The notes below the pieces were generated by a model. That model did not search any database. It was not told where the DNA came from and saw only the letters and a program-made list of their open reading frames with translations. Of a stretch of 32,000 nucleotides of DNA, positions 4,632 through 25,739 are shown in pieces. The stretch comes from Opitutales bacterium (lineage in GTDB: Bacteria > Verrucomicrobiota > Verrucomicrobiia > Opitutales > UBA9783). Position 1 is the stretch's first letter. Each line of letters begins with the position of its first letter. Where the stretch lies: contig JBKSMP010000019.1 of NCBI GenBank assembly GCA_046881885.1, positions 20,119 to 52,118 on the forward strand, written 5' to 3'. Position numbers and translations under genes: made by a program.

Positions 4632-5450
4632 TCAAAAAGAAAAGTGTTTGGAAAAATTTATCCATACATCCAAATCAATTTCTTCTGCTCGTATTTGGTG
4701 AGGAATTTGTTTTTGAGACAAAAATTCCAAAAATCTTTCAGCCACTTCATTAGAAATCGTTTTACAGACACGACCAATTTGCTGCCGACGATGTAAAAAA
4801 ACCTGTCGTAAAAACAATTTTACGTCTTTAGGAAATATATAAGCATCTGTACGTTTTACAAGGTGAATAAGCAAAGAATCCACTTTAGGTTGCGGATAAA
4901 AGCAATTTTTGCCGACACAACATTTATTGGCCAAAGAATAAGCTGCTTGGAGATTAACACTCAAGGCACCAAAATTCTTCGTACCTGCTTTTGAAAGCCA
5001 ACGATTCGCAGCTTCTTTTTGCACCAACAAAACCATGCATTCAGGCAATCGAACTTGCTCCAAAATAAAATCCAACCAAACACTCGCAATCGCATAAGGA
5101 AGGTTTGCAACAATTTTGTAAGATTTCGATCCATCAAAGGTGCCTATTGGAAATTGCAAAGCATCTTCATTACAAACCGAAATAGGAAAGGTTTCTTGAA
5201 TATATCGAAAAAAACACGCATCTTTTTCTACAGCAAAAACCTGCGCACCGGTTTCAACTAAGGCTCCCGTTAAGGTTCCACAACCTGGGCCAATCTCAAC
5301 AACAACATCTTCAAAGTTCAACTGTGCCCATTCTAGAGATTTTTGAACAAAACGAGCATTAATTAAAAAATTTTGTCCTAACTTTCGATTAGGACAAACA
5401 CCCAAATGAGCCAAAATCTTTCGTGTTTGACTAAGGTCTAAGGCCCACAT
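4632..5450 (-). CDS. rsmA: 16S rRNA (adenine1518/1519-N6)-dimethyltransferase
   Basis: KsgA-family motifs are present: LGQNFLIN, the SAM-binding VVEIGPGCGTLT, and VANLPY. Confidence 0.9.
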   Translation of the reverse strand: MWALDLSQTRKILAHLGVCPNRKLGQNFLINARFVQKSLEWAQLNFEDVVVEIGPGCGTLTGALVETGAQVFAVEKDACFFRYIQETFPISVCNEDALQFPIGTFDGSKSYKIVANLPYAIASVWLDFILEQVRLPECMVLLVQKEAANRWLSKAGTKNFGALSVNLQAAYSLANKCCVGKNCFYPQPKVDSLLIHLVKRTDAYIFPKDVKLFLRQVFLHRRQQIGRVCKTISNEVAERFLEFLSQKQIPHQIRAEEIDLDVWINFSKHFSF

Positions 5451-5459
5451 AAGGGGATT

Positions 5460-5660
5460 TTATATATTTTCGCGTTTTTGGCGCAACATGTTATTGAACG
5501 CTGCAACCTTTTTCTTCTGACGTCTTACCTCGCAAGGCTTTTCAAAATAACGCTTTGCTTTAACATCGCGCAAAACTCCTTCGCGATCTAATTTTTTCTT
5601 CAAGCGGCGTAAAGCCTTTTCTAAAGGTTCACTTTTGCGCAATTTAACTTCAACGGACAT
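5460..5660 (-). CDS. rpsU: 30S ribosomal protein S21
   Basis: I place the start at the internal ATG 5660, which is preceded by AAGGAG. The product MSVEVKLRKSEPLEKALRRLKKKLDREGVLRDVKAKRYFEKPCEVRRQKKKVAAFNNMLRQKRENI (66 aa) shows the typical S21 pattern. The track ORF start at 5696 is probably too long. Confidence 0.9.
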   Translation of the reverse strand: MSVEVKLRKSEPLEKALRRLKKKLDREGVLRDVKAKRYFEKPCEVRRQKKKVAAFNNMLRQKRENI

Positions 5661-5805
5661 TGCTATTTTTCTCCTTGGTTTTACTAATACAAACAATATT
5701 GAGGATCACCCCCAACAAGGTCAAGCGTTTTTTCCGAAAAACCTATCGCATTACAAATCCATAAAAACATCACATCCTTCTTTTTTTATGAGTTTTATAC
5801 CCCCC

Positions 5806-6474
5806 CTACTCCACGGTAAAAAATTCGGGAAGAATTTCGATTTTATGGATTTTACCTTCAATTTCCTTTGGACAAGGCGTTCGCAAGCGAAAGGTAACTG
5901 AGGAATTGAGGAAAGTGGTTGTATACGAATCTAGCAAAGGATTATTGTGCCGTTCATCTAGCCAATCGCTTGTGGTTAAGGAAAAATCCTCATTGTTGGC
6001 AGCTTCCTTAAAATCCAAGCGCAAGCTTAATGTTTCAGTAAGATCACGCTCTATTGGGCGCCATAAAAGCGGCGAATTTTCGGTTAACAAAGTCTGTAAA
6101 GCAACACTTTGGGGCCAATCCAAGGTACTTTTGGTCGTAAATACTTGAGCAGGATAAAAATGGCATTCGGTTGTAATCTCCAAATCATCATCTGAAATTT
6201 CCGTATGCAAACCATAATCTTTTAAAGCAATCCGTTCCAAAAGTGTAAATGGTGTTGCATCTAAACGTACTGTATTTTGGATGGGAAAATCATTAATTTG
6301 ATAATGATAATTAATGGTAAGCTTTGCGAGAAGCCAATAACAACGCACAATGCTTGGAATATCCAAATGGGTAATGGTATCGCATTTTTTGGTTCCAAGA
6401 TGGGGATAAACAAAGCGTCTCGTCGTAACACCGTAAGGCGAAACAAACGTTCTAAAAGGTTTTATTGTAGGCAT
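5806..6474 (-). CDS. hypothetical protein, last gene of phage-like cluster
   Basis: The ORF is 222 aa and starts 12 nt downstream of the 564-aa gene. It has no recognisable motifs. Confidence 0.4.
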   Translation of the reverse strand: MPTIKPFRTFVSPYGVTTRRFVYPHLGTKKCDTITHLDIPSIVRCYWLLAKLTINYHYQINDFPIQNTVRLDATPFTLLERIALKDYGLHTEISDDDLEITTECHFYPAQVFTTKSTLDWPQSVALQTLLTENSPLLWRPIERDLTETLSLRLDFKEAANNEDFSLTTSDWLDERHNNPLLDSYTTTFLNSSVTFRLRTPCPKEIEGKIHKIEILPEFFTVE

Positions 6475-6486
6475 AAATAAAAAGGT

Positions 6487-8181
6487 TTAGGAAGAAAGCA
6501 GCCAAATTTTCTTAAGCACGCCGGATTCGACAACGTCAAACGGCTTTAAAGACATTTGCGTGTTAGGTGGTAAACTGGCAGCGTCGATAGAAATGGTTTT
6601 GTCTGCGCTTTTTAAGGTTAGTTGCGAATAGGTTCCTTGGTTGCAGCTTGAATTGATAATAGGCGTTAAATGCGGAAAATAGGTACGAGATTGGCCTGAA
6701 GCTTTTTGAGCAAAACGCATATGAGGATCATTGGAAATCGTACGCAGCCGATTGGCGCGCATCAATTGAATCAGATCGTTTGGCCCCAAATGCTTAGGTG
6801 CACCAAATTTAAGCTGTACAGTACCGGAATCTAAGTGCATATATTCTTCTTGGATAGGAACTTGAAGCGATTCCCAAGCTTTATCGCCATGCAAAAATTT
6901 CAGTTTCTTGCCTAAATAAGACGATTCCAATTCCTCGCATTCAAACTGCACCGAACCTTCATGCTGCAAACATTGTGTCGACTCGTAGAGGATTTTTGCT
7001 AAATTTTGGGGAGGTTTTACGCCTTCCGTAAGGTAAACACAATTGCGATAGGTTTTTGAAACAGCATCCGTACTACAAATTTTCAATGCAAATAACTGAT
7101 GTGCTACTTGCGTGTCATTCGTTTTGTAACTAATAGTTGCAGTTATGGTTTCGTATTGCGCTTTACACTGCATCCAAGGTGCAATGGCTCCCTCCAGCAA
7201 CTCATTAGGTAATTTCGTCGTTCTCTGAACCGATTCAAGTTGAATATCCGTGTCAGGAATCGCTTGCAAGGTTGGAAAATGCTGCTTCCACCAATCAACG
7301 GAATGGGTTTGAATCGGCTGCACTTGAACCCACTGCTCTTGAATATGCGTATGGGTCCCTTCCAACTCAACTGTCAAAACGAGCGTATTCATCGCATCGC
7401 TAGGGCAATTTTTGGGAAAAACATCAACCGTAGTTGTTTTCCAAGTACCCTTTTCGTTCGAATTTGAATGTTCGTATTTTAAAACAACACCGTTCAGCTT
7501 TAAATCGTTACGTGGCGTTAAAGAAAATTGGCTTAAACGTTGAAGGGATAAAGACATAGATTCTAAAAAGGCTTGCCGAGAAATGTTAAACGTAGGCTTT
7601 GCAGCCGTGTAATCAAACCAACAAACCGCATCTGGAGTCCATCGAAGAAGCTTCTGGATGACCTCCATACAGCTACAATCTTTAATGGTTTCGCAAGGAA
7701 AGAAAAAATCAAAACCTTCGATTTTCCCCAATTGCAAAGGTGCTCCATGCTGAATACAATACTGAATTATGTTTGTTAAGCAATTTTTTGCATCCATAGC
7801 CTTTCCGTCCTCTGATTGTCCTAATTGACACAAACTTCTTGGGATCGAAATCATTTCTTCATCGTTAGCACCCTTAAAATACTGCCAAGATTGCTGAAAA
7901 ATAAGATGCTCCAAGTACCAATTGGGACCAGAAACCCTATAGGATTTGCTTTCTTCGTTTACAGAAAATTGACAAGGTATTTGCACGATTCTTCCGCTAA
8001 ACCAACGGGCATTATCTTTAAAAATTTCGATAGTGTCATCGCATTTAAAGGGTACGTTATTCGCTTCTGTTTTAAAAGAAAGTGTATCGCTTCCCTGATT
8101 TAAAACACGACGATTTACATCATAAATATACCACTTCGCTAACGGTTTTTTTACCCCCTGATAGCTTAAATACCAAGTCAT
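6487..8181 (-). CDS. large virion-module protein (candidate tail hub / host-interaction protein)
   Basis: This 564-aa ORF is the largest in the cluster. The N-terminus (MTWYLSYQGVKKPLAKWYIYDVNRRVLNQGSDTLSFK...IEIFKDNARWFSGRIVQIP...SGPNWYLEHLIFQQSW) is reminiscent of phage hub or late-control-D-like N-termini. I cannot assign the family. Confidence 0.3.
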   Translation of the reverse strand: MTWYLSYQGVKKPLAKWYIYDVNRRVLNQGSDTLSFKTEANNVPFKCDDTIEIFKDNARWFSGRIVQIPCQFSVNEESKSYRVSGPNWYLEHLIFQQSWQYFKGANDEEMISIPRSLCQLGQSEDGKAMDAKNCLTNIIQYCIQHGAPLQLGKIEGFDFFFPCETIKDCSCMEVIQKLLRWTPDAVCWFDYTAAKPTFNISRQAFLESMSLSLQRLSQFSLTPRNDLKLNGVVLKYEHSNSNEKGTWKTTTVDVFPKNCPSDAMNTLVLTVELEGTHTHIQEQWVQVQPIQTHSVDWWKQHFPTLQAIPDTDIQLESVQRTTKLPNELLEGAIAPWMQCKAQYETITATISYKTNDTQVAHQLFALKICSTDAVSKTYRNCVYLTEGVKPPQNLAKILYESTQCLQHEGSVQFECEELESSYLGKKLKFLHGDKAWESLQVPIQEEYMHLDSGTVQLKFGAPKHLGPNDLIQLMRANRLRTISNDPHMRFAQKASGQSRTYFPHLTPIINSSCNQGTYSQLTLKSADKTISIDAASLPPNTQMSLKPFDVVESGVLKKIWLLSS

Positions 8182-8182
8182 A

Positions 8183-8305
8183 TTAATGCCTCAAATTCTC
8201 TAATTGTTCTTTTACTTCTTTTAAGTCCCATTCTAGCGAATGAAGCTTGTCAATTTGCTCATATAAAGCGTCCCAAAGAGCATTATTATCTTCAATGGTT
8301 TGCAT
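8183..8305 (-). CDS. small coiled-coil protein (40 aa)
   Basis: I place the start at ATG 8305, preceded by GGAGGAG with a 6-nt spacer. The product is MQTIEDNNALWDALYEQIDKLHSLEWDLKEVKEQLENLRH. The longer track version (to 8443) overlaps the upstream gene by about 150 nt and is unlikely. Confidence 0.35.
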   Translation of the reverse strand: MQTIEDNNALWDALYEQIDKLHSLEWDLKEVKEQLENLRH

Positions 8306-8690
8306 GTAATTCTCCTCCGTAAATTTCATATAATGAAAAAGAAGCGTTGCCTTTATAATGTGTTTGAACGCGATACAAAGTCGCTGATTCAAGTTGAAAA
8401 CATCGATGAGCTTTATCCTCAAAATCAAGCAGCAACACACCATTTGCCTGCTGTAATTCGCTTGCGTGCACTAAGGCATGTTGAGCAGCGTCTTGCTGAG
8501 ATCGATGTTTACGACCCACTTCAAAAATTAGCTTCGTTTGCAGATTTCCACGGTTACAGGTTTGGCTAAAGGTCGCTCGAATTGCTTTTACAATTTGCAG
8601 ATTTCTTTGACTAGTAATTTCAAACCGAGAGGGTGTTTCATTCGCCAAATTTCCGCCACACAAAACATGTTCATTTAAGGTGATTTTCAT
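8292..8690 (-). CDS. hypothetical virion-module protein
   Basis: The ORF is 132 aa and starts 1 nt after the upstream stop. I recognise no family. Confidence 0.4.
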   Translation of the reverse strand: MKITLNEHVLCGGNLANETPSRFEITSQRNLQIVKAIRATFSQTCNRGNLQTKLIFEVGRKHRSQQDAAQHALVHASELQQANGVLLLDFEDKAHRCFQLESATLYRVQTHYKGNASFSLYEIYGGELHANH

Positions 8691-8691
8691 A

Positions 8692-9132
8692 TTAAAAAAT
8701 AAGTGAAAATTGAGAACTTATGAAATGCATTTGAAGGGCCAATCCATTGTCTACTTCTAACCATTTCCAAGGGTTTTTGGGTTCTAAAATAAAGCAACCT
8801 TCCCACTGATCATGCTCAAACTTTTTATGGGAAATAACATAACAAAGTTGTTCTGCAAGATCGAGAAAGGAGCCTTTTTCGGCACTTAAATGCTTTCGTA
8901 TGAGCGTACACTGCAAGGACAATTTCTCCCAACATAACTCCGAAATGTTCGAAACGGTTTCTACAGGAAAAGGTGTCGATAGATAAAGCTGCAAGGGTTT
9001 TAGAGAAGCCGATTTACGCGTTGTCTCCAAAGCATCGAAGGTTTCAGGAATAAATGAAACAGCTTTAAACATAAGCTCTTTTTGAAGATCTTCGATAATG
9101 GTCTTTTGTATACTTTGCAAAATGGGTTTCAT
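8692..9132 (-). CDS. putative neck/head completion protein (Mu gp37/DUF1834-like position)
   Basis: The ORF is 146 aa. The call rests on position plus weak resemblance only. Confidence 0.3.
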   Translation of the reverse strand: MKPILQSIQKTIIEDLQKELMFKAVSFIPETFDALETTRKSASLKPLQLYLSTPFPVETVSNISELCWEKLSLQCTLIRKHLSAEKGSFLDLAEQLCYVISHKKFEHDQWEGCFILEPKNPWKWLEVDNGLALQMHFISSQFSLIF

Positions 9133-9593
9133 AAGCCTCTTAAGGTTTTATAGGTGGTATCTTTTGGACGAAAGCGCACAGCTTCTAGCTTGTGTACGCG
9201 TTTATTTTCTTGGGATTGTTCACGCCAAGACTGCTGAAATTGTTCTAAGCTTGTTCGCGCTTGTTGGGCATTCCGAACTTGATCTTCCGACAATTTTAAT
9301 TCCGGAATACGCGTTTGAAGCGCTTCAATCACCAAGTGACAGGCACCTAATTTACAAGCAGTAGGAACGTGATTACGCGCTAAGGGATTCGGACGTAGCT
9401 TTTCTGGCACCCTTGCTTGAATATAAGCACAAACGTCATTTATAATTGTCTTCAGGGGCGTTTGATGTTCCGTAATGCCATGATTCGACAAAAGCGTCAC
9501 TTGATCATTTGCCAAATAATCTGCAATCGCGTCTGTTTCTAAAAAAATCCAATCTAATGTCGTCATAAGTAGAAGATCGGGAATGGCTTTCAT
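9129..9593 (-). CDS. putative head-tail adaptor / head completion protein (Mu gp36/DUF1320-like pattern)
   Basis: The ORF is 154 aa and lies immediately after the capsid gene. It is helical and loosely similar to the DUF1320 pattern. It overlaps the next gene as ATGA. Confidence 0.35.
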   Translation of the reverse strand: MKAIPDLLLMTTLDWIFLETDAIADYLANDQVTLLSNHGITEHQTPLKTIINDVCAYIQARVPEKLRPNPLARNHVPTACKLGACHLVIEALQTRIPELKLSEDQVRNAQQARTSLEQFQQSWREQSQENKRVHKLEAVRFRPKDTTYKTLRGL

Positions 9594-9608
9594 TCCCGAA
9601 AATAAGGG

Positions 9609-10514
9609 TTATTCTTGCTTTGCAGTTAATTGAGTAATGTTGGTATTCGATGTCACAACGATATTGCTGTAATGCTCCACGGTAATATCCGTAAACTTCG
9701 TATGCTCTTCCAGGTAAACACGGAAAAGATTACCATCTTCACTCGGCGTTACAAAACGTTTAATATTGGAAGGTTCATCCTTTAATAAACCGTTTTGAGC
9801 ATAAAAAGCAAAGATCTCGTTACCATTCAACTCATCTCCCTGGATACCCAAATGTTGCTTTTTAAGTAGCTGGATACCTTCAACAAGCAATTTTTCCGAC
9901 AAATGCTCACGTGACATTTCAGCCGAAATACGAGCTCCTGCGTTATCCTGAAGCGCATAACAATCTTGCCGCAAATACCATGCCAGTTCTCCAAAAAGCA
10001 GACGATTTGGATAAAATCCGTGCTCATAACTTGCCAAAAGCAAAGTTTCTCGGATATCCACGTCCGGCTGACTTTCTGCAGTCCACGTCTTCTCCACAAC
10101 ATTTGCATTTGTTTTTAACGCAGAAATCGCTCGTCTTAATTCGTTACGATACAAGCGTTTCATAAGCATATGTACGTAACGTTCCTGCCAATCCTCTCCA
10201 ACGATATCATCTGTATCTACGCGAATCGTTAAACCTTTATTTAAGGTCTTAGCCTGAACCATAGAACCTGAAAACTCGATGCGCTTAAAACTGCTACCCG
10301 ATGCACGCAAATCATCTTGTTCTGAACAAAAGATTTCGTCTGTTTCCGATTTTTTGTATTCAAAACGACGGGCAACAGGTACTTTAGGTGCAATGAAATT
10401 AAGTAAATTCTCAACACCTTCCGTATCGGTCCAATTCTTTGTAAATTGCGTCAAAACCTCCGAATAATGGTTCTGATTAAACTGACTTTCTTTTGCTTGT
10501 GTAAGTGTTTCCAT
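9609..10514 (-). CDS. putative major capsid protein (HK97-fold class expected)
   Basis: The ORF is 301 aa and sits in the canonical position after the protease and decoration genes. It does not resemble Mu gpT as I recall it. It is loosely lambda gpE-like in organisation. No family was identified with certainty. Confidence 0.55.
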   Translation of the reverse strand: METLTQAKESQFNQNHYSEVLTQFTKNWTDTEGVENLLNFIAPKVPVARRFEYKKSETDEIFCSEQDDLRASGSSFKRIEFSGSMVQAKTLNKGLTIRVDTDDIVGEDWQERYVHMLMKRLYRNELRRAISALKTNANVVEKTWTAESQPDVDIRETLLLASYEHGFYPNRLLFGELAWYLRQDCYALQDNAGARISAEMSREHLSEKLLVEGIQLLKKQHLGIQGDELNGNEIFAFYAQNGLLKDEPSNIKRFVTPSEDGNLFRVYLEEHTKFTDITVEHYSNIVVTSNTNITQLTAKQE

Positions 10515-10516
10515 AA

Positions 10517-10951
10517 TTATTTAACTTTAAGGTTACGTGGTAATGAGGTAAGGACTTCGATACATCCATCTTTTTGTCCATCTTCGAGCGCTAAACCAAT
10601 GATACAATAGGTACCGGCCTCAGACGGTAAAGCTTGAGCATGTCCATTATCTGCAAGACAAAGCAACTGACCGGCTTTAACCTTCGAAGCAATACGAATT
10701 TTAGCCGTTCGAGCACACGAAGAAAGGGGTTGCACGCAGATAAGATCGTCCTTTACTTCCGCATTATACTGCGAAACTCCCCAAGGAATTTCTGTTTTAG
10801 GACAGATTTTGACATAATTTGCATCGCCATCAAAACAAACCAAGCAATACGCTTGTAAATCGTCTGTTTTGGAACGTTTCGTTAACATTCCTTCGTGTAC
10901 CCCAACGGCGTTATGCGCATTGGCCATAATTATTTTTTTAGTTGTTTTCAT
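10517..10951 (-). CDS. head decoration / capsid cement-like protein (DUF2190-like pattern)
   Basis: The gene lies between protease and capsid, as lambda gpD does. The C-terminal ...VKAGQLLCLADNGHAQAL...GTYCIIGLALEDGQKDGCIEVL resembles the beta-clam decoration/DUF2190 pattern. The start is ambiguous between M1 and M9. Confidence 0.45.
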   Translation of the reverse strand: MKTTKKIIMANAHNAVGVHEGMLTKRSKTDDLQAYCLVCFDGDANYVKICPKTEIPWGVSQYNAEVKDDLICVQPLSSCARTAKIRIASKVKAGQLLCLADNGHAQALPSEAGTYCIIGLALEDGQKDGCIEVLTSLPRNLKVK

Positions 10952-10957
10952 AAGAAA

Positions 10958-11539
10958 TTAGATATTATTTTTTTTAAAAACTGCATTCCAAGCTTCCGGA
11001 TAACTTTCTCCAGTGGCTTTCATACGCTGATAAACTTTTTGAACAAAATTTAAAATTGCTACTTTTTCGGAACGTTTCTGGACTGATTGCACCGGACAAC
11101 CTTGCGTATTATTTGACTTATAAATCGGCTCTACCGGTAAATTCGGCGTATTAGTAAGGCCTACCGAAAGAAGCTTTTTGGGCACAAAGTGATCGTTGAC
11201 TTCCTCCATTTCCCAGCGCGGAGACACATAACGATATCGTCCATTATCTATCAATTCTCGACCAGATTCTGTCCAATCTACTTGGATCCAAAGTCCGTTA
11301 TCCTTTAAGCAAAAACGTCGAACATAGCCGTAAACAGTCATATTCATATGTTCAGGGAATTGCTGAAAATAGGCATCATCGGGATGACCCACATAAATAG
11401 GAATTTTCGTAAAACCAAAACGAAAGCGCCAGGTTTGCGTTTTCTTTACGCAAGCTTTCAGGGTTTCCTGCGATAAGTATTGCTTACCCAATCGATGGTA
11501 AAATTGTCCAAACGGTGATAATTGTATCCAAGTTTTCAT
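10958..11539 (-). CDS. prohead protease/scaffold-like protein (Mu gpI-like)
   Basis: PIYVGHPD ... GLWIQVDWTESGRELIDNGRYRYVSPRW ... LLSVGLTNTPNLP resembles the Mu-like prophage protein I family pattern (W-T-x-x-G-x-x-x-I-x-x-G-x-Y-R-Y-x-S-P). At 193 aa it is much shorter than Mu gpI. Confidence 0.6.
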   Translation of the reverse strand: MKTWIQLSPFGQFYHRLGKQYLSQETLKACVKKTQTWRFRFGFTKIPIYVGHPDDAYFQQFPEHMNMTVYGYVRRFCLKDNGLWIQVDWTESGRELIDNGRYRYVSPRWEMEEVNDHFVPKKLLSVGLTNTPNLPVEPIYKSNNTQGCPVQSVQKRSEKVAILNFVQKVYQRMKATGESYPEAWNAVFKKNNI

Positions 11540-12729
11540 GATTTTTTCAATAAGTCTTCGTGGTTAGCTGGGGGATTGATGCCAAAATGCTCGCGAACAT
11601 CGTTCAAACTGAGTTCGACCCCCATATCCCATAAGGTTTTAATAATGTTCAAATCGTTATTGAGATTTTTGTTTGGAGACGTCTTGAGCTGAAAATAAGC
11701 CTTAGGATGCTCTGTACCCTCCAAATACTTCAAAACGCAACGATCGATTTGCTCATGCAAGGTATCGGAAATCATTTGTGCATCATCTTCTTCCAATAGA
11801 TCTCGTTCAGCGTTTTGCACCGAACTTCCAAGGCCATGCTGCTGCCCCAAAGTCGTTAAGTCGGATCCACGCCATAAAGCCGCCATTGCACGATCCATAC
11901 GCTCCACCAATTTCGGATACGGTAATTCACCCTTCCCTGAGATATCAATGGCTTGAATATCGGTACCTGCCGTCATCAAGGCGTGAAATTCTGCACCAAA
12001 ATTTTGTACGGCTTCGCGTGCCACTTCCCATTCGTCAGAACCAGGCCGTGCATTCGTAATCCCTTTAACGCCTGGCATACCATTGCGCTCACAATAAATC
12101 AGCCAATCACGCAGAGGTAAATGCTTAAACAAATACGCGATGGAACACGATTCCATCAAACCATCACCGGTCGTGATCAACCATTCATCAGACTTCAATG
12201 GAATCTTTTTATCCCCACCAATATACTGCAAACGTCCCTCTTTATTCTCAAAAAAGAAAAGTGGAACAAAACGAAATTCAGCCGTTAAAAACCGCTTCGA
12301 ATGTTGCGTAAAGGGCTTAAAAACAACTTCGTGAACTGCATAACGCTTGCCAACCGCATCCATCATTTGCCGAATCAGTAGCGGAACTCCACCACGCTCA
12401 TTTTCATCGTAAGCATTGACGCATTGTAAATTATTGTAAAACTGCTCCAGTAAGAATTTTTGGCGCATCGCTTCTTCAGAATTATCAAGCGTCAAAATCT
12501 CCCAAGGAAGTCGCGCAATGGCTTTCTTACGCTTCGAAATAACCCCTTGAAGCAGATCATCACGTCGTTCAATCGCATCCCAAATAAGCGCTGCTTGCTT
12601 CAAATTGCCTGCATGAAAATCGTCCAAAATTCTCGCCAAAGACGCAGGCGTCAAGGAACGAATCGGATTCCAACGCAGTCGCGATAAGCTATCCTGCCGA
12701 AAGGCCGTTAAATAAGTATTAGTTTTCAT
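11536..12729 (-). CDS. phage portal protein (Mu gp29 / DUF935-like)
   Basis: The N-terminal region RWNPIRSLTPASLARILDDFHAGNLKQAALIWDAIERRDDLLQGVISKRKKAIARLPWEI matches my memory of the DUF935 portal signature. Its position between TerL and the protease is also consistent. Confidence 0.75.
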   Translation of the reverse strand: MKTNTYLTAFRQDSLSRLRWNPIRSLTPASLARILDDFHAGNLKQAALIWDAIERRDDLLQGVISKRKKAIARLPWEILTLDNSEEAMRQKFLLEQFYNNLQCVNAYDENERGGVPLLIRQMMDAVGKRYAVHEVVFKPFTQHSKRFLTAEFRFVPLFFFENKEGRLQYIGGDKKIPLKSDEWLITTGDGLMESCSIAYLFKHLPLRDWLIYCERNGMPGVKGITNARPGSDEWEVAREAVQNFGAEFHALMTAGTDIQAIDISGKGELPYPKLVERMDRAMAALWRGSDLTTLGQQHGLGSSVQNAERDLLEEDDAQMISDTLHEQIDRCVLKYLEGTEHPKAYFQLKTSPNKNLNNDLNIIKTLWDMGVELSLNDVREHFGINPPANHEDLLKKS

Positions 12730-14041
12730 AAAGTCTATAAGGTTTAGGAGCTAAAAAAAGCTCTGTTTTAAAAGGTTGAACGGTTGGTTTTCGGTCGGCA
12801 TACAGCGCTAATGCCATTGCCCAAAAACGATCCGCATGGCCATTATTAGAATGCTGAGCGGTTAAATGCGTCTGTTCCCATTGCACACTGAGCAAGTCGG
12901 AAATTAAGGCCTCATCTCTCGGAATGCGCATAGCGTATCGATTGAACGTACTCTTCAACTTATAAGCCAATTCCTCTTTGAGTTTTGAGGTAAAACTAAC
13001 ACCTTCGACACAATACGTTCCAAACTTTGTCTGTGCTCGCTCGAAAAACTGGCTTCCAATACCGGTACGATCAATACAAACATTTTGTACCGAATACGTT
13101 CTAAAAAGGTGCTCAAAGACTTGCTCTTGCTCATCAAAACGTGCATTTTTCAAACATTGCAGATGTCGCATAAAGTAAACATCATCTAGTTTTTCAAAAA
13201 CAACAAATACACTTAAATCGTTCGTTCGAGCAATATCAACCCCCATAAAGGTAGGTCCGTTATTGCGCTGTTTCCAAGCAGTATTCGGCACATAAAAACA
13301 AGGTTCTAGCTCCTTAAACTCAATAAAAGCCGTCGCATCATCAATCGGTTGGCACAAGTACTCTTGCCGAAAACTTTGCTCACTTGGGCACGCATTTTTG
13401 ATGAAATTAAAATAGTCGGCTTCATCCATCTCGCAACGCGGATCTTCTGGAGGCAACTTAGCCTTCAATTTTTTCAAAAATCCTTGCTCCAAAGCATCCA
13501 TTAACGTCACTTTATGCAGGGAAATTTTTTTAGGATTACCACCTTTTGAAGCTTCTTGGACCAGCTGATTAAAAAAATTTCGGCTACCACGATGTGTCGA
13601 AATAATTTCGAGCTGTCCACCCCACGTAATTCCTGGATAAGCAATAGCATACAAATACTCTGGATCATCATGTAAGGCAAATTCATCCAAAATACGCGAA
13701 CCTCGCTTACCTGCTTGTGCATCTGCATTCGAAGAAATAGCTGTCAACGCACTACCATTTTTAAACTTCAACGTGCTCTTTTTGGCGCTTGTAAGACACT
13801 TAAAAGGCACCGTTTGATCCAAAATCGTCGCAAATTGTTTGCAATCCTGCAGAAATAATTGCGCTTGCTTGGCATCACTTGAACAAATCCACGTGTGTTT
13901 CTTAGGCTGACATAAGGCTTGGCGCGTACAACGATAAGCCGTAGCCCACGATAAACCAATTTGACGGGATTTCTCCATCAACTTAATCCGAGCATTGTCT
14001 CGAATCCAACGAATTTGATACGGTAGAAAAAAGGTATTCAT
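12719..14041 (-). CDS. phage terminase large subunit
   Basis: The N-terminus FLPYQIRWIRDNARIKLMEKSRQIGLSWATAY carries a terminase-type Walker A variant (K-S-R-Q-x-G-x-S). RILDEFALHDD is Walker B-like. The C-terminal half has nuclease-like acidic motifs (GVDIARTNDLSVFVV, CIDRTGIG). The 440-aa length fits. Confidence 0.8.
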   Translation of the reverse strand: MNTFFLPYQIRWIRDNARIKLMEKSRQIGLSWATAYRCTRQALCQPKKHTWICSSDAKQAQLFLQDCKQFATILDQTVPFKCLTSAKKSTLKFKNGSALTAISSNADAQAGKRGSRILDEFALHDDPEYLYAIAYPGITWGGQLEIISTHRGSRNFFNQLVQEASKGGNPKKISLHKVTLMDALEQGFLKKLKAKLPPEDPRCEMDEADYFNFIKNACPSEQSFRQEYLCQPIDDATAFIEFKELEPCFYVPNTAWKQRNNGPTFMGVDIARTNDLSVFVVFEKLDDVYFMRHLQCLKNARFDEQEQVFEHLFRTYSVQNVCIDRTGIGSQFFERAQTKFGTYCVEGVSFTSKLKEELAYKLKSTFNRYAMRIPRDEALISDLLSVQWEQTHLTAQHSNNGHADRFWAMALALYADRKPTVQPFKTELFLAPKPYRLYEN

Positions 14042-14370
14042 AACAGTTGCAGTTGATCCTCAATCGTCTTCAAAACGTTTTCGGAAAGATTCCAGGCCTT
14101 TTCATCGCTTGCATCACTTTGCAGCTTTTGCGTAATCGCAAACAATTGTTGATAATTTTGGAGTAATTTATGCAAAATACCGCTCAAATCTTTGACGGAC
14201 GACCAATCCGATTCCATCGTATTTGAGCATAAACTATCGAAAAGTTGCTCCCATAGAAGGCCCATAGACTTTTCAGCCAAGGCCATTTGCTCCCATAAAG
14301 ATGCCGTATTTTTTGCAAACTTAATGCGATCAAGGTGCGATTTAAATGCTTTCGTCATAATCCGTTCCAT
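14038..14370 (-). CDS. helical protein upstream of large terminase (positional candidate small terminase subunit)
   Basis: The sequence is predicted helical. Its stop overlaps the TerL start as ATGA (14041/14038). The likely true start is ATG 14358, which forms an ATGA overlap with the upstream stop. The TerS call is positional only. Confidence 0.4.
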   Translation of the reverse strand: MERIMTKAFKSHLDRIKFAKNTASLWEQMALAEKSMGLLWEQLFDSLCSNTMESDWSSVKDLSGILHKLLQNYQQLFAITQKLQSDASDEKAWNLSENVLKTIEDQLQLL

Positions 14371-14624
14371 TTGTCAATGTCTAGAAAATCAATGCCTTTG
14401 GTCGACAATTTATAGCGTCGACAAGCCGGACAAAGTTCATTCTTGATAGGCGTAATAAATTCCTTATCCACCAAATATTGTAATTCTTTCTTCAAATCAG
14501 TTGGATGCGTATCCAATCCCGCTAAATGTAATCCTTGGCGTAAAGTTTCTTGTGGTAAAGAAACCGGATAAGCAGCTTCTAATTGCAGAAGTAATGTGTG
14601 ACGTATCGTTTCATTTTTATTCAT
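14355..14624 (-). CDS. small hypothetical protein, possible winged-helix DNA-binding protein
   Basis: The ORF is 89 aa. The helix-rich N-terminus followed by ...LQYLVDKEFITPIKN...RRYKLSTKGIDFL is reminiscent of a wHTH fold. The function is not established. Confidence 0.4.
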   Translation of the reverse strand: MNKNETIRHTLLLQLEAAYPVSLPQETLRQGLHLAGLDTHPTDLKKELQYLVDKEFITPIKNELCPACRRYKLSTKGIDFLDIDKWNGL

Positions 14625-14626
14625 AA

Positions 14627-15076
14627 TTAAGCCTTTAAATCAACCAGTGCGCTTCCAAAATAAAGTCCAATAATAGCCGACAATAAATGTGTATCCAACG
14701 GGGTAATCACGATGCCATTTAGGTGGATCCAACGAATTTTTTCGCAAGCAGACGAAAAAAACAAAAAACCATCTGAAAACTGCGAATAGCCAATCGCTAT
14801 AGGCATGTCTGGTTTGATAATAGCAACCAATTTTGGCAACACAATCACCGAAAAAACCGCTAAAATCGCAATCAGCCGGCGTGTGAATTGAAGTCCAGGA
14901 TGGGCATTACGTGCACTTAATACGCTTGCTTCCAAAGTATGCGCTTTGCAAACTTTTAACAAACGTTCCTTATGATGGGCCATCAAGGAAAAACTGAGAA
15001 GTCGCATCGTACTTCCAAAAATCGACGACCCTAAAAGCGAAACAAGTTCTGAAGGTAATGTATTCATATGTTGCAA
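14627..15076 (-). CDS. membrane protein with about three hydrophobic segments (holin-like by topology and position only)
   Basis: This is the first gene of the cluster. Its hydrophobic stretches are LVSLLGSSIFGSTMRLLSFSLM, LIAILAVFSVIVLPKLVAII and LLSAIIGLYFGSAL. The start is either TTG 15076, with GAGG 8 nt upstream, or ATG 15067. Confidence 0.45.
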   Translation of the reverse strand: MQHMNTLPSELVSLLGSSIFGSTMRLLSFSLMAHHKERLLKVCKAHTLEASVLSARNAHPGLQFTRRLIAILAVFSVIVLPKLVAIIKPDMPIAIGYSQFSDGFLFFSSACEKIRWIHLNGIVITPLDTHLLSAIIGLYFGSALVDLKA

Positions 15077-15204
15077 CTAGTTTACCTCAAAATTTTTAAA
15101 TCAACAACGCTTGCATGGGCTAATCCCCTTTGGTTTGGGTGATTGTGTTGTTTATTGTTATTTCGCCAAAAGCCATCTATTTTTGGTCAAAACCTAGAAA
15201 ACTC

Positions 15205-15261: not shown

Positions 15262-16770
15262 GTGAAAGCGAACGAAGAATTTTCAGGATTAAGAGGTATA
15301 TTTTTCCCTATACATGCCTATGAGCTTAAAAAAATTATTCCCTTGGGACTTATTTTATTTTTTGCTTTATTTAATCATTATTGCCTAAAAAATTTAAAAG
15401 ATTCCTTAGTCGTAACGAATGCAGGGGCTGAAGCAATTGCATTTATTAAGCTCTTTGGCGTCCCTCCTTTCGCAATTATTTGCATGTTGCTCTATACAAA
15501 AATGAGCGATCGTTTAAAAAATGAGCACTTATTCTATGCAACTTTAGGCTTTTTTGTCTCTTTTTTCGTTCTATTTACGCTTGTCCTATACCCTTGCAGA
15601 GAATTTATACATCCATCTGCTGAAACCGTTGCACAACTACAAATTGCCTATCCGTATGCTTATTGGTTCTTTGCCATCTGGGGTGTATGGAGTTATGCCT
15701 TATTCTTTGTGTTTGCCGAATTATGGAGTAGTTTCATCTTAACCCTATTGTTTTGGCAATTCGTTAATCAAATTACGGAATTAAAAGAAGCGAAACGTGT
15801 GTATGCCTTCTTAGCGCTTCTGGGACAAGGAGCCGTAACCTTATCTGGTTATATCGGCGTATTAGCCTCGAATATTCGCGATAAAGTTGCATACGACACT
15901 GATCCCTGGCAAATTACCTTATATTGGTTGATTGGAACCGTTTTGGTAAGCAGCTTAATGTCGATGTATTTATACCATTGGGTCTATCGAAATGTATTAA
16001 CCGATCCTCGCTTTTACAACAAACCCGATTTACCTGGCGTTAAAGTCAAAACAAAAGCCAAAAGTAGCGTTTGGAAAAGCTTAAAAATGGTCTGTCGTTC
16101 GCCTTATCTCGGCTTAATTGCGCTATTAGTTTTATGCTACGGCATTAGTGACAACATTATCGAAAATTTTTGGAAGCACGAACTCGGTCAACGTTACCCC
16201 AACATTAACGAATACAATACCTTCATGAGTAATTATACGATGGCCTACGGCTTTTTATCGATGCTTGTGCTCATCGTCGCAGGATACGTATTTCGCCGTT
16301 TTCGCTGGGGTGTTGGCGCCATTTTAACCCCGCTCGTCATGACCATCGGAGGTATTTTACTCTTTATCCCCATGGTATCCAAAGAATTCTTCTTAGGGCT
16401 AGGAGCAGCAGTCAGCTACCAAAGCTTGGTGGTTTATGTAGGAGTTGTTGTCCTGGTGCTCGATAAAGCCTTCAAAATGTCTTTCTTTGACATCAGTAAA
16501 GAAATGGCCTTTATTCCACTTAATGAAGAATTAAAGGTCAAAGGTAAAGCGATTGTCGATGTCTTTGGCTACCGCTTTGGCAAATCCGGCGGTTCGGGTC
16601 TACAAGTCATTCTGTTAACCCTCGTAAGCGCTTTTTCAGGTGTACAAGCGACCTATTCCGATATTGCGATTTACGCGTTTATTATCTTCTTGTTGTGTTC
16701 TTTCGTTTGGCTCATAGCCGTCTTACGCTTGAATCGACAAATACGCGCCAATAAAGTTATTGATGAGTAA
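15262..16770 (+). CDS. ntt: nucleotide transport protein (ATP/ADP translocase, TLC/NTT family)
   Basis: The 502-aa polytopic membrane protein has an N-terminus ...LRGIFFPIHAYELKKIIPLGLILFFALFNHYCLKNLKDSLVVTNAGAEAIAFIKLFGV... This matches the chlamydial/rickettsial NTT pattern (W/F-P-I-H-x-x-E-L-K-K ... L-K-D-x-L-V-V-T). The only plausible start is GTG. Confidence 0.85.
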   Translation: MKANEEFSGLRGIFFPIHAYELKKIIPLGLILFFALFNHYCLKNLKDSLVVTNAGAEAIAFIKLFGVPPFAIICMLLYTKMSDRLKNEHLFYATLGFFVSFFVLFTLVLYPCREFIHPSAETVAQLQIAYPYAYWFFAIWGVWSYALFFVFAELWSSFILTLLFWQFVNQITELKEAKRVYAFLALLGQGAVTLSGYIGVLASNIRDKVAYDTDPWQITLYWLIGTVLVSSLMSMYLYHWVYRNVLTDPRFYNKPDLPGVKVKTKAKSSVWKSLKMVCRSPYLGLIALLVLCYGISDNIIENFWKHELGQRYPNINEYNTFMSNYTMAYGFLSMLVLIVAGYVFRRFRWGVGAILTPLVMTIGGILLFIPMVSKEFFLGLGAAVSYQSLVVYVGVVVLVLDKAFKMSFFDISKEMAFIPLNEELKVKGKAIVDVFGYRFGKSGGSGLQVILLTLVSAFSGVQATYSDIAIYAFIIFLLCSFVWLIAVLRLNRQIRANKVIDE

Positions 16771-24588: not shown

Positions 24589-25029
24589 TTAAACCTTTTT
24601 CCTCTTAAACCCCAAAAGGCTTAAAATACAAATACTTGTGATTGCAATATCGGCAATATTAAAGCAGGGCCAATGGGAATTTTTTACATAAAAATCTAGA
24701 AAATCAACTACATGGCCTCTTAAGAAACGATCTAGCGTATTGCCTAAAATACCGCCACACAAGATCCCGAATAAAATCCATTGGCACCTGGACGGAGCAT
24801 GTTTTTTTAGATAAAAAGGAAGAACCAGCACTACCATAACGCCCAACCACGCAAGTCCATAAGTCCATTGCGAACCCATTCCCCAAATACTACCTGTATT
24901 AAAAACGAGCTGTAGAGAGAAAAAACCTGGAATAACAGTAATCGGTTGAGCAAGCGTTGTAAGTGCCCAAATTTTAGCGAATTGATCGCATATAAAGACA
25001 AGAAATGCGCTCCAGAAGAAGCATTTCAT
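24589..25029 (-). CDS. lspA: lipoprotein signal peptidase (signal peptidase II)
   Basis: Motifs DQFAKIW, FNTGSIWG, GGILGNTLDR..GHVVDF and FNIADIAI are present in a 146-aa protein with four TM segments. Confidence 0.9.
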   Translation of the reverse strand: MKCFFWSAFLVFICDQFAKIWALTTLAQPITVIPGFFSLQLVFNTGSIWGMGSQWTYGLAWLGVMVVLVLPFYLKKHAPSRCQWILFGILCGGILGNTLDRFLRGHVVDFLDFYVKNSHWPCFNIADIAITSICILSLLGFKRKKV

Positions 25030-25739
25030 TCCATTTCCTCATTTAACTCTTGAGCATCTTCTGCTTCATAAAAAGGACGTTTGGAAGCTTCGTTTTCCTC
25101 ATCGCTTGAAATACGCACTGAGCTATTTGCCAATTGGGCTAAACGTCGTGCACGCGCAACGTCTTCCATTTGCTTTTGCCCTTCTAGGGAATAACGAACA
25201 TAGGGTATCGATTCTAGGCGTTGTTCCAAAATCGGTTTACCTGTAATCTCACAAACACCATACGTTCCAGCAAAAATCCGCTCTATAGCTGCATCAATTT
25301 CTTTCAAGGCTTCCTTAGGATCGGAAATTAAATCCAAAGACAAAGTTTCATCTTCATGAGCTTGAGTATCCAACGCACCTCCACGCAACCGCGTTCGCAA
25401 GCGAATAAGTTTGTCATAAAAAGACTTCCACTGATTAGGAACTTTTCGCTGTTCTTTCTCAGGCGCAGGTTCTGCAGAAGACTTAGGATTAAATCCGAAA
25501 ATATCACTTAAAGAAGCTGCCTTGAACACACGCTTTTGAGCTGTATCTTGCGGCTTATTTTGTTGAGAAATTACCTCTGTTTTTTGCGTCTTACGAATAA
25601 CTTCTTCTTTACTTTTTTCTTTTAAAAAATTATCAACATCTTGCATGGAAAAGTGGTCTTCGCGTACATTAACCACTTTACTATTTGCATGCTTACGACG
25701 ACAAGCCGCTTTCAAAATACTACTAACATCCGCTTTCAT
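25026..25739 (-). CDS. dksA: DksA/TraR-family-like protein with N-terminal extension
   Basis: The C-terminal IERIFAGTYGVCEITGKPILEQRLESIPYVRYSLEGQ resembles the DksA zinc-ribbon region but has only one Cys. It overlaps lspA as ATGA, matching the dksA-lspA adjacency I recall from Chlamydia. The N-terminal ~100 aa are Lys/Glu/Gln-rich. Confidence 0.65.
   Translation of the reverse strand: MKADVSSILKAACRRKHANSKVVNVREDHFSMQDVDNFLKEKSKEEVIRKTQKTEVISQQNKPQDTAQKRVFKAASLSDIFGFNPKSSAEPAPEKEQRKVPNQWKSFYDKLIRLRTRLRGGALDTQAHEDETLSLDLISDPKEALKEIDAAIERIFAGTYGVCEITGKPILEQRLESIPYVRYSLEGQKQMEDVARARRLAQLANSSVRISSDEENEASKRPFYEAEDAQELNEEME

Follow-up and report, generated by a model that had tools for sequence, protein, structure and literature searches.

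We describe a compact 14-gene locus of an Opitutales bacterium that, on balance, probably descends from a temperate phage with a Mu-type head and has been domesticated, fixed in the chromosome and inherited vertically, a GTA-like 'viriform' that would build a DNA-filled, stub-tailed particle. Domestication of the locus is well supported, and it is a strong candidate for encoding a gene-transfer-agent-like particle in gut and free-living Opitutales, inherited along with the chromosome. A literature search for an earlier description of such a locus found none. An initial annotation of the window (the whole 32-kb stretch analysed) had preferred a maintained, possibly domesticated locus to random decay, and this preference is upheld by the HMM calls, the conserved chromosomal sites, the dN/dS ratios and the matching dS of cluster and host genes.

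Operon layout and boundaries

The cluster consists of 14 intact minus-strand ORFs (5806-15067/15076, ~9.3 kb) with no internal stops, gaps of -14 to +15 nt and a coding density of ~100%, bearing out the uninterrupted, tightly packed arrangement first described. The four ATGA start/stop overlaps claimed are all present (14358/14355, 14041/14038, 11539/11536 and 9132/9129). Also as described are the flanks (rpsU and rsmA at one end, a TLC/ntt transporter and a class I/II aminotransferase at the other) and the lack of a compositional break (GC 0.405 in the cluster, 0.401 in the flanks). The integrase and att-like repeat that had been reported missing were not found in or around the cluster, where flanking direct repeats were searched for, and neither was an adjacent tRNA. 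The whole window has no integrase, repressor, replication or endolysin gene, and because it lacks such genes the locus cannot spread as a virus.

The rpsU-side junction lies at ~5802, exactly 4 nt past the g14 stop codon. This junction is seen in the window only; at that point close relatives run on into prs-lpxD-ompH-bamA, or the contig ends.

A putative promoter region (15079..15119, minus strand) comprises an upstream element and -35 box, CCCATGCAAGCGTTG, at 15119-15105 and, after a 20-nt spacer, a -10 box, TAAACT (15084-15079), 11 nt before the g01 ATG. The motif CCMAYRCAWNYSTTG occurs in one copy per locus, immediately 5′ of g01, in 15 loci of at least four lineages, as counted in the same sequences from which it was derived. 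The lineages that share it have saturated synonymous sites, and its conservation suggests a promoter.

Packaging and head genes

The phage assignment holds under HMM searches for TerL, portal and protease. TerL (440 aa, 12719..14041; this and all genes below are on the minus strand) combines an ATPase with an RNaseH-like nuclease domain, matching Terminase_6N at 2.8e-13, Terminase_6C at 1.7e-12 and phrog_2 at 1e-36. Its predicted catalytic residues, called by assigning motifs in the sequence (K24/R26/Q27/G29 as a deviant Walker A, D119-E120 as Walker B, S148-T149, D269, D324 and D404), are 100% conserved in 33 orthologues. The portal, of Mu gp29 type (397 aa, 11536..12729), had been called DUF935-like and matches Portal_Mu PF06074, the former DUF935, at 1.3e-61; its identity across Opitutales clades is 69-84%. 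The head maturation protease (193 aa, 10958..11539) is equivalent to the N-terminal domain of proteins of the Mu gpI type, in agreement with its first description as Mu gpI-like, and matches Mu-like_Pro at 5.8e-15 (profile positions 64-150 of 330) and phrog_328 at 2.3e-18.

Two other calls stood in part. The 'decoration-like' gene, g07 (144 aa, 10517..10951), does encode a head protein, a scaffold or cement (DUF2190-like) protein, but its PHROG annotation is head scaffolding (phrog_673 'head scaffolding protein', 1e-9), and a cement match (Phage_cement_2), itself weak, appears only in the Rubellicoccus orthologue. The major capsid protein (MCP; 301 aa, 9609..10514) is indicated by gene position and by several weak signals, less than had been stated for it: phrog_1005 'major head protein' at 6e-4, Pfam Phage_capsid_4 in two of 20 orthologues, and PDB 3bjq 'phage-related protein' at 0.021. 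The protein database contains 755 homologues of it, and its dN/dS is 0.014-0.027.

Three small genes precede TerL. The first, g01 (146 aa, 14627..15067), is a holin-like candidate with three transmembrane segments, the topology being read from the sequence alone; it matches phrog_38283 (function not known) at 1.3e-8, has dN/dS of 0.02 and is 47-54% identical to its orthologues in free-living Cerasicoccus and Rubellicoccus. The second, g02 (89 aa, 14355..14624; phrog_436, function not known, at 1.7e-7; dN/dS 0.10-0.13), is possibly a winged-helix DNA-binding protein and a candidate for the DNA-recognition part of the small terminase. The third, g03 (106 aa, 14038..14358), is helical, overlaps both g02 and TerL by ATGA and is kept directly upstream of TerL in most clades, a position that makes it a TerS candidate. 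The earlier wHTH and TerS calls found no significant support: the PDB profile matches of g02, to PadR and SlyA winged-helix regulators, are all non-significant, and a search for family and PDB matches to g03 gave none.

Neck and tail genes

The initial annotation saw no tail-tube genes, which is corrected here: the fold of the 132-aa ORF product (g11) is that of a tail tube, and the 564-aa ORF (g13) encodes a baseplate hub/spike. With its neck adaptor, tube-fold protein and VgrG-like hub, the locus is more than a head-only module such as those of capsid-forming satellites. The operon has no sheath gene and no long tape measure, and there is no fibre gene in this clade.

The first neck gene, g09 (154 aa, 9129..9593), may be a Mu gp36/DUF1320-like head-tail adaptor; its matches are weak, with Phage_Mu_Gp36 found in four of 29 orthologues (best 1.7e-4) and a full-length profile match to the DUF1320 protein of PDB 8rka at E = 0.11. 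Next to it g10 (146 aa, 8692..9132; dN/dS 0.09-0.15), a neck protein by position, gave no family or PDB match and is homologous at HMM level to the f10 family of other clades; it is a candidate stopper or head-completion protein.

A Foldseek search of PDB with the AlphaFold2 model of g11 (8292..8690; pLDDT 88) retrieved, at E 5e-4 to 1e-2 and probability 1.0, tube proteins of contractile injection systems together with chains from structures of the phage 812 neck and neck-tail junction, from the 80alpha baseplate model and from RcGTA (6toa, 6tba). BFVD gave matches whose names are tail tube protein and siphovirus-type tail component. Candidate roles for g11 are tube, tube initiator and Dit-like ring. 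For g13 (6487..8181; AlphaFold2 pLDDT 82), of gp27, Mu gp44 and VgrG-like type, Foldseek against PDB matched the Algoriphagus eCIS 7aef (3.6e-14), entries for the PVC central spike and the AFP baseplate (~1e-11), 3cdd, a tail protein of MuSo2 (2.5e-11), 1wru, the gp44 hub of Mu (5.6e-10), and VgrG1 (6.6e-10). Directly 5′ of the hub gene, more than 35 loci from all hub-bearing clades have an ORF of 37-61 aa ending in ...EQLxNL[RK]. We propose that its representative here, g12 (40 aa, 8183..8305; a coiled coil by reading, dN/dS 0.03), may act as a minimal tape-measure-like or hub-plug peptide. The distal gene after the hub, g14 (222 aa, 5806..6474), is the fastest-evolving (dN/dS 0.06-0.14; identity between clades only 24-34%). 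No family match was found for it, and at HMM level f24 is its homologue; we regard it as a candidate for receptor binding or for the tip.

Host and chromosomal context

The genome had been taken for Chlamydiota-like. Flanks and cluster are instead 88-99% identical to MAGs labelled Opitutales (Verrucomicrobiota), which are the closest genomes and share the ntt-aminotransferase flank, and since the host belongs there, the argument that such a module is unexpected for Chlamydiae is void. A genome scan with one genome per species confirmed 148 relatives at 48-99% MCP identity. All of the best 80 belong to Verrucomicrobiota, as Opitutales or Puniceicoccales except for a few whose label stops at the phylum, and each locus is from a different genome. 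No lysis enzyme was identified in the 20-32 kb of sequence examined per genome.

The core genes keep one order throughout: (g01-g03), TerL, portal, protease, scaffold, MCP, g09, g10, g11, g12, hub, g14. In the large 'Merdousia'/human-gut clade TerL is not adjacent to the portal, being inverted upstream in L063/L064 and elsewhere undetected within 10 kb, so DNA packaging may be unlinked or lost there. L052 and L075 are partial loci, and in free-living Cerasicoccus and Rubellicoccus no tube or hub was detected near the head genes and g09.

The expectation that relatives would carry the cluster at the same locus held within clades and not order-wide. The flanks are housekeeping genes, syntenic within clades, for example ntt-aminotransferase / prs-lpxD-ompH-bamA, lspA-dksA-ileS and galK-galE / purH, and in one sub-clade ligA and glyS (the last six genes of this list were named from sequence only). 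The Pfam-annotated contexts of relatives contain no integrase, and neither they nor the 32 kb contain lysogeny or replication genes.

Selection and co-divergence with the host

Between the window and L012, dN/dS is about 0.02-0.14 for all 14 genes, and dS is 0.38-0.79 for cluster genes versus 0.56-0.77 for four adjoining host genes. The pattern recurs in five more species pairs, taken from other clades; over the six pairs dN/dS is 0.02-0.3, far below 1, and cluster dS equals that of neighbouring host genes. Element GC follows flank GC from 37% to 68% (r = 0.95, n = 57). Identity to other clades is 74-75% for ileS, 69-82% for the portal and 53-63% for MCP, and mean identity in the gut clade is 0.79-0.80 for MCP versus 0.81-0.82 for galE and purH; the divergence of the phage-derived proteins appears to match that of housekeeping proteins. 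Pairwise correlations of host-flank with element identity are positive, mostly weak. The MCP tree places all Opitutales loci in a single short-branched clade with monophyletic synteny groups; outside it, on long branches, are the IMG/VR viral contigs other than L091 and L092, which fall inside.

L091 and L092 look like the same element as the Opitutales loci; IMG/VR classifies them as viral.

Proposed particle and alternatives

A sigma-70-type promoter with its conserved upstream element just 5′ of g01 would transcribe the cluster as a single operon, whose 14 genes would be translationally coupled. Portal, protease, scaffold/cement and capsid protein would form a procapsid, into which TerL, predicted to be catalytically intact, would package DNA by headful, with g02/g03 as the likely small-terminase function. 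The Mu gp36-like adaptor g09 and g10 would close the head, and a g11 ring, the g12 peptide, a g13 hub-spike trimer and g14 would make a very short non-contractile tail, as the gene content suggests. The particles would most likely bring host DNA to other cells.

Domestication for a role other than transfer would leave the same signals, and we consider it unlikely rather than far-fetched. The particle might serve phage defence, as a decoy or interference capsid; it might be a killing particle; or host-associated Opitutales might use it to deliver protein or DNA effectors. The g13 hub resembles effector-delivering eCIS/VgrG spikes, the window lineage looks host-dependent (ntt ATP/ADP translocase; a CesT-like chaperone on a related contig), Opitutales includes symbiont-exclusive families, and TerL is unlinked to the cluster in one large clade. 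Where TerL is present, however, its predicted ATPase and nuclease sites are invariant, which argues for DNA packaging; moreover the operon has no sheath or effector-like cargo gene, and free-living relatives keep the head module too.

Less probable again is a capsid-forming, helper-dependent satellite or defective phage, still mobile and packaging its own genome, with excision, replication, lysis and perhaps extra tail parts supplied by a helper phage or by host functions elsewhere. It would account for a compact locus of head and neck genes plus minimal tail parts, with its own TerL and possible TerS, for a right junction that differs among close strains exactly 4 nt past the g14 stop codon, for several assemblies that break at recurrent points, and for the two loci called viral by IMG/VR. 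It fits poorly with the absence of integrase, AlpA, primase/replicase and repressor from the window and from annotated relatives' contexts, with the lack of both att repeats and an adjacent tRNA, with dS equal to that of adjoining host genes in six species pairs, with GC fully ameliorated to hosts of 37% to 68%, with one genome per locus among the best 80 of 148 loci, and with monophyletic synteny groups. Having tube and hub genes of its own, the locus does not require tail piracy.

An ordinary cryptic prophage remnant, in neutral decay and kept by chance, is very improbable and already contradicted: most phage modules are missing and some lineages have partial or rearranged clusters (L052, L075, L063/L064), yet 14 of 14 ORFs are intact, dN/dS is 0.02-0.3 in six independent species pairs with the 40-aa ORF included, 148 relatives are confirmed at 48-99% MCP identity, the predicted TerL catalytic residues are invariant and the promoter motif is conserved. 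We give least credence of all to a module of a complete, functional temperate phage with other genes beyond the examined sequence, which related IMG/VR contigs, real phages with repressor, endolysin and larger tails, might suggest, but which is already contradicted by housekeeping flanks on both sides (5.8 kb and 17 kb in the window; ~4-6 kb past each cluster end in L009/L010, L141, L142 and L008), and prophages are contiguous, as the split arrangement here would not be.

Comparison with related phages

The domesticated, GTA-like particle locus that we favour differs from its phage relatives in content and in sequence. Whereas the Opitutales loci and the whole window are without a repressor and endolysin of this type, the related phage contig L113 has genes for both, a CI-like repressor and a GH108 endolysin, immediately 5′ of the packaging genes. 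Compared with the best GenBank phages, which are D3112/B3-like, the portal is only 26% identical.

Gene content of the operon

The cluster is a run of 14 consecutive minus-strand ORFs that begins with an ATG at 15067 (with a TTG upstream, at 15076) and ends at 5806. Adjoining genes are spaced by −14 to +15 nt. Internal stops are absent from all 14 genes, in line with the initial annotation, and the four ATGA start/stop overlaps that it had reported were recovered at identical positions.

These ORFs were scanned against Pfam, PHROGs and NCBIfam, with the 40-aa ORF g12 covered only within a longer reading at 8183–8443, and the other sizeable ORFs of the window were scanned against Pfam. HMM searches had been proposed as a check on the phage assignment, and they matched the families of TerL (Terminase_6N at 2.8e-13, Terminase_6C at 1.7e-12 and phrog_2 at 1e-36), of the portal, which is of the Mu type (Portal_Mu, PF06074, at 1.3e-61), and of the protease (Mu-like_Pro at 5.8e-15, phrog_328 at 2e-18), which corresponds to the N-terminal domain of Mu gpI-type proteins. 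The residues of TerL that we assign as deviant Walker A, Walker B, C-motif and three nuclease aspartates, their catalytic roles being our own assignment, are invariant in 33 orthologues. The next gene, g07 (144 aa), matched a PHROG annotated as head scaffolding at 1e-9, and its Rubellicoccus orthologue matched Phage_cement_2 weakly. For the 301-aa capsid protein (MCP) of the window the family searches gave no significant capsid family match; the signals were weak (phrog_1005 at 6e-4 and PDB entry 3bjq at 0.021), and Phage_capsid_4 was matched by two of 20 capsid orthologues. The NCBIfam scan of the cluster ORFs returned nothing. The first gene, g01, may have a holin-like role.

Neck and tail genes

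Sequence-profile searches of the PDB with g13, g11, g10, g03 and g02 gave no significant match. Two tail genes, g13 (564 aa) and g11 (132 aa), were modelled from alignments of database homologues. The model of g13 (pLDDT 82) matches baseplate hub and central-spike proteins in the PDB: Algoriphagus eCIS entry 7aef (3.6e-14), the PVC central spike, the AFP baseplate and the MuSo2 tail protein 3cdd, and further the Mu gp44 hub, VgrG1, and pyocin and siphophage hubs. The model of g11 (pLDDT 88) has a tail-tube fold. In the PDB it matches tube proteins of contractile injection systems, chains in the neck entries of phage 812, one chain in the baseplate model of 80alpha and chains in the RcGTA particle entries; its BFVD matches include proteins named tail tube protein. 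These two models overturn the earlier reading of the cluster as a head-only module or satellite.

Between the head and these tail genes, g09 orthologues match the Mu gp36/DUF1320 adaptor weakly (the gp36 family in 4 of 29 orthologues), and g10 has no family match and is homologous between clades. Every clade with a hub gene has, directly upstream of it, an ORF of 37–61 aa that reads as a coiled coil and ends in the motif EQLxNL[RK]. Given this constancy, and a dN/dS of 0.03 for the window's copy (g12), we do not regard g12 as noise. From the folds of g11 and g13, the weak gp36 match of g09, the cross-clade homology of g10 and the conservation of g12, the operon is predicted to encode a head, a neck and a minimal non-contractile tail. 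In such a stub tail, g12 would serve as a micro tape measure. Neither a sheath nor a long tape measure nor a wedge was detected among the cluster genes, and the window's clade also has no fibre; small baseplate parts are possible in g10 and g14.

A larger candidate for the tape measure was considered in termite-gut Puniceicoccales, where proteins of about 470–600 aa (family f14) are encoded between g11 and g12, ahead of the hub. It was rejected because f14 and the related family f72 look like tail fibres (LamG domain, weak tail-fibre PHROG matches); in the f14-bearing clades the 40-aa ORF still stands directly before the hub gene. In free-living Cerasicoccus-like genomes the gene after g09 belongs to family f72 and encodes a Laminin_G_3 domain. 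The fibre-like genes (in the fetched loci L067 at 12326–13999, L073 at 11450–13261, L035 and L051) are clade-specific and absent from the window, and they suggest lineage-specific changes in host recognition.

Host and flanking genes

The rest of the window is housekeeping: gyrB, tRNA-Thr, efp, an RNase HII-family gene, rsmA, rpsU, the TLC-type ATP/ADP translocase gene ntt, an aminotransferase, an ABC permease, rpoN, succinyl-CoA ligase, lspA, a DksA-like protein, a class I tRNA synthetase read as ileS, a hydrolase, a FabH-like protein and tRNA-Pro. The DksA/TraR zinc-finger protein, between lspA and ileS (25026–25739, minus strand), is unusually long at 237 aa. The initial annotation had seen no integrase, att-like repeat or compositional break, and we agree: the 32-kb window holds no recognizable integrase or other recombinase, repressor, replication gene or endolysin, the cluster has no att-like flanking repeats, and composition does not break at it. 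Nor were replication, integration or lysogeny genes found in the cluster contexts of the relatives. Such selfish modules are lacking.

A scan with the MCP alignment, run on one genome per species with 20–32 kb seen in each, confirmed 148 relatives, a number that cannot be converted to a share of Opitutales as the scan was pattern-based. The best 80 of the 148 are all Verrucomicrobiota by their record titles, mostly labelled Opitutales or Puniceicoccales. The host had been taken for Chlamydiota-like; that reading is rejected, as the close genomes are all labelled Opitutales or Verrucomicrobiota, and we found nothing relevant in the literature on a chlamydial GTA. The relatives include metagenome-assembled genomes (MAGs) from the guts of humans (Hadza and others), termites, ruminants, horses and chickens, the cultured Intestinicryptomonas porci and strain Marseille-Q1082, and free-living Cerasicoccus; the free-living Rubellicoccus relative came from a separate look-up. 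The nearest MAGs, L011 and L012, have the ntt-aminotransferase flank in common with the window, at 88–98% amino-acid identity.

It was probably ntt (15262–16770, plus strand; PF03219 at 4e-151) that pointed the initial annotation toward Chlamydiota. A related Opitutales contig (L142) encodes a CesT-like type III secretion chaperone at 150–611, and a preprint lists symbiont-exclusive families within Opitutales. With ntt, these indicate that the lineage may be host-dependent, and the gene content suggests that the window's gut Verrucomicrobiota lineage may be energy-parasitic or otherwise host-associated.

The junction of g14 with rpsU, at about 5802, occurs in the window only; relatives diverge or their contigs end there. 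Relatives at 88–99% nucleotide identity run from the g14 stop into prs-lpxD-ompH-bamA-dnaB, not rpsU-rsmA (position 9171 in L001 and L002), and the contig of the closest species-level MAG, L011, ends exactly at the g14 stop. No record turned up in exact look-ups for the rsmA and g14 proteins of the window, and a metagenome scan with a 32-mer spanning the junction found no match. The junction may be a strain rearrangement, with its breakpoint 4 nt past the operon, or a misassembly or chimeric join in the window. Independent metagenome assemblies also break at the same window positions, L001 and L002 starting at 14972 and L003 and L004 ending at 7614. Divergence from the window is not raised at these positions, and strain mixtures may cause the recurrent breaks.

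Inheritance and selection

Gene order is kept across clades: (g01–g03), TerL, portal, protease, scaffold, MCP, g09, g10, g11, g12, hub, g14. The flanks are housekeeping genes, conserved inside clades and differing between them: ntt on one side and prs-lpxD-ompH-bamA on the other, dnaX-acpP-fabF and lspA-dksA-ileS, galK-galE and LysM-purH, or ligA and glyS (galK, galE, purH, ligA and glyS are named from sequence reading alone). The expectation of one locus shared by related genomes thus held as syntenic flanks within clades and failed as a common site across them. The lspA-dksA-ileS block adjoins the cluster directly in five or more loci (among them L023–L025, L031, L037 and L142) and lies 9.5 kb from it in the window, which fits local rearrangement rather than re-insertion.

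All 14 genes are under purifying selection, with dN/dS of 0.02–0.14 against L012, a comparison that had been proposed as a check on domestication. In the same comparison dS is 0.38–0.79 for cluster genes and 0.56–0.77 for adjacent host genes. Five more species pairs from other clades likewise gave dS equal to that of the host flanks and low dN/dS (up to 0.3 over the six pairs). Families with dN/dS > 1, such as f21, f25, f17, f52 and f70, were left out as spurious antisense ORFs of a greedy caller in GC-rich loci. The GC content of the element tracks that of its flanks from 37% to 68% (r = 0.95, n = 57), and the cluster proteins are as divergent as housekeeping proteins. In the MCP tree the Opitutales loci group together in a single clade of short branches, within which synteny groups are monophyletic.

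Cluster and host have diverged together. Correlations between host-flank and element identity are positive and mostly weak, owing to the narrow range of divergence and noisy ORF calls, so the case for vertical inheritance rests on dS equality, GC tracking and the monophyly of synteny groups.

Variation among relatives

In a large clade from human and animal guts (‘Merdousia’ and relatives) the cluster starts with the portal, which follows galK, galE and a UDP-sugar pyrophosphorylase gene, and TerL is not adjacent (L045, L056, L065, L058, L069, L082, L086 and others, at about 5000–7400; host genes named by reading). In L063 and L064, of the same clade, the g02-g03-TerL block is inverted and lies upstream. 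Partial clusters were seen in L052 and L075 and suggest local disruption in a few lineages. In L052 two copies of a 349-aa ORF (family f114), possibly an insertion sequence, stand one on each side of the scaffold and MCP genes. In the free-living genera no tube or hub was detected beside the head genes.

Promoter

Just 5′ of g01 lies a predicted promoter, an upstream element CCMAYRCAWNYSTTG followed after about 20 nt by TAWAMT, which is kept in several lineages with saturated synonymous sites. In the fetched loci the pattern occurs solely at this position, with the single exception of L016. Consensus scans for promoters and terminators gave counts not above shuffled expectation. No regulator of the operon was found. 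In the window, the predicted −10 box and the g01 start codon lie within 15065–15084 on the minus strand. In several lineages 6–13 nt separate the box from this codon (6 nt in L013 and L016), and from this short distance an mRNA expressed from the operon may be leaderless or nearly so.

Phage relatives

The MCP had no match in 50,697 GenBank phage records, and the best GenBank phage matches of the portal were in D3112/B3-like transposable phages of Pseudomonas, at 26% identity. The capsid family recurs in 50 IMG/VR contigs (33–51% identity), several of them with g11- and g13-like genes. One of these, IMGVR_UViG_3300014501_000755, is a bona fide temperate phage; a CI-like repressor (HTH_3 and Peptidase_S24) and a GH108 endolysin are encoded directly upstream of its packaging genes. 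IMG/VR temperate phages such as this one have homologous TerL, portal, protease, MCP (33–48%), tube and hub in the same order, but they carry a repressor, an endolysin and a larger tail (a 1078-aa hub and extra proteins of 286 and 659 aa). By this comparison the Opitutales elements are what remained after loss of the lysogeny, lysis and most tail genes, kept under selection.

Two contigs listed as viral in IMG/VR, UViG_3300022689_000476 and UViG_3300032397_000085, nevertheless fall inside the Opitutales element clade of the MCP tree, and most cluster genes of the stretch g01 to g13 have homologues in the former. Both look like the chromosomal element, not a virus. The other IMG/VR phage relatives fall outside that clade, on long branches.

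Interpretation

The cluster is best explained as a domesticated, GTA-like particle operon. It is maintained by the host, with vertical inheritance, purifying selection and host-like composition, and it is a phage-derived structural cluster free of genes for autonomous replication, integration or lysogeny. A more specific reading, which we hold tentatively, is that it represents an independently evolved GTA family of Verrucomicrobiota, descended from a phage with a Mu-type head, that exchanges DNA among its hosts through a tail of unprecedented economy: a tube-fold ring, a micro tape measure of about 40 residues and a VgrG-like spike. This family would span the order Opitutales, taking in lineages from human and animal guts as well as genome-reduced lineages that depend on a host.

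The particle might instead have been domesticated for a different role, for example in defence, killing or the delivery of effectors. TerL is unlinked to, or undetected beside, the portal in the ‘Merdousia’/gut clade, as such a role would allow, but the conservation of TerL speaks for DNA packaging, and we think this reading improbable. A mobile satellite dependent on a helper is disfavoured by dS equality with the host flanks, by GC tracking, by the presence of one locus per genome, and by the absence of integrase, replication genes and att sites. With reading frames intact and dN/dS low throughout, neutral prophage decay is contradicted, as is, with housekeeping genes on both sides of the cluster, membership of a complete prophage. 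We return to the GTA-like operon, the particles of which would assemble from its products and transfer packaged DNA.

The independent GTA lineages known so far are few, and to our knowledge none is in the PVC group. Our literature searches for GTA, terminase or portal in Chlamydiae, Opitutales, Puniceicoccales and Verrucomicrobia found no description of the element. If the interpretation is right, this is a new GTA lineage of different ancestry, with a Mu-type head, across Opitutales, and a route of horizontal gene exchange in abundant and poorly studied gut and aquatic Verrucomicrobiota. The route would extend to reduced, host-dependent genomes, where mechanisms of gene exchange are an open question. 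The tube-fold protein, 40-aa coiled coil, VgrG-like hub and single distal protein would make a natural model of a minimal DNA-delivering tail. Two such loci are entered as viral in IMG/VR, so virome surveys may be counting clusters of this kind as prophages by mistake.

Comparison with known systems

The closest parallel is RcGTA of Rhodobacter capsulatus (PDB 6tba and 6toa). Both are compact, phage-derived head-to-tail operons without replication, integration or lysogeny genes, in the order terminase, portal, protease, capsid, adaptors, tube and hub, and both are chromosomal, vertically inherited across order-level hosts, under purifying selection and slower in evolution than their phage relatives. 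Of the Opitutales proteins, g11 matches RcGTA particle chains at the level of fold only; the family searches showed no sequence homology of portal, protease and capsid to those of RcGTA. The Opitutales portal (PF06074) and protease are of the Mu type, whereas those of RcGTA belong to other families, and the host phylum differs. The Opitutales locus is also smaller (9.3 kb versus about 15 kb), its hub is a VgrG-like fusion, and it has no long tape measure, distal tail protein, peptidase or megatron-like host-attachment protein.

Mu-, B3- and D3112-like phages share with it the Mu gp29-family portal, the gpI-family protease, a weakly matching gp36-like adaptor and a gp44-like hub fold. The likeness is confined to the head genes and this hub; unlike those phages, the window has no transposase A/B, repressor, sheath, long tape measure, baseplate wedge or fibre genes.

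Capsid-forming PICIs (cf-PICIs) are likewise small chromosomal elements with their own terminase, portal, protease, capsid and head-tail connectors. They carry integrase, regulatory and replication genes, lack tail genes and steal the tails of helper phages; the Opitutales locus, in contrast, has none of those three gene classes, no att-like direct repeats and no adjacent tRNA gene, and it does encode a tube-fold protein and a hub.

Among eCIS and tailocins (Afp, PVC, AlgoCIS and R-pyocin), eCIS baseplate and central-spike proteins are the best structural matches of g13, and g11 resembles the eCIS tube. These systems combine sheath, tube, baseplate and spike with no capsid, whereas in the Opitutales locus sheath, wedge and cap genes were not detected and a full DNA-packaging head module with TerL, absent from eCIS and tailocins, is present.

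The element thus falls outside the RcGTA family, whose portal and protease are of other families, and it is neither a Mu-like phage nor a cf-PICI nor an eCIS; it belongs to the known kind of domesticated phage-derived particles, or GTAs.
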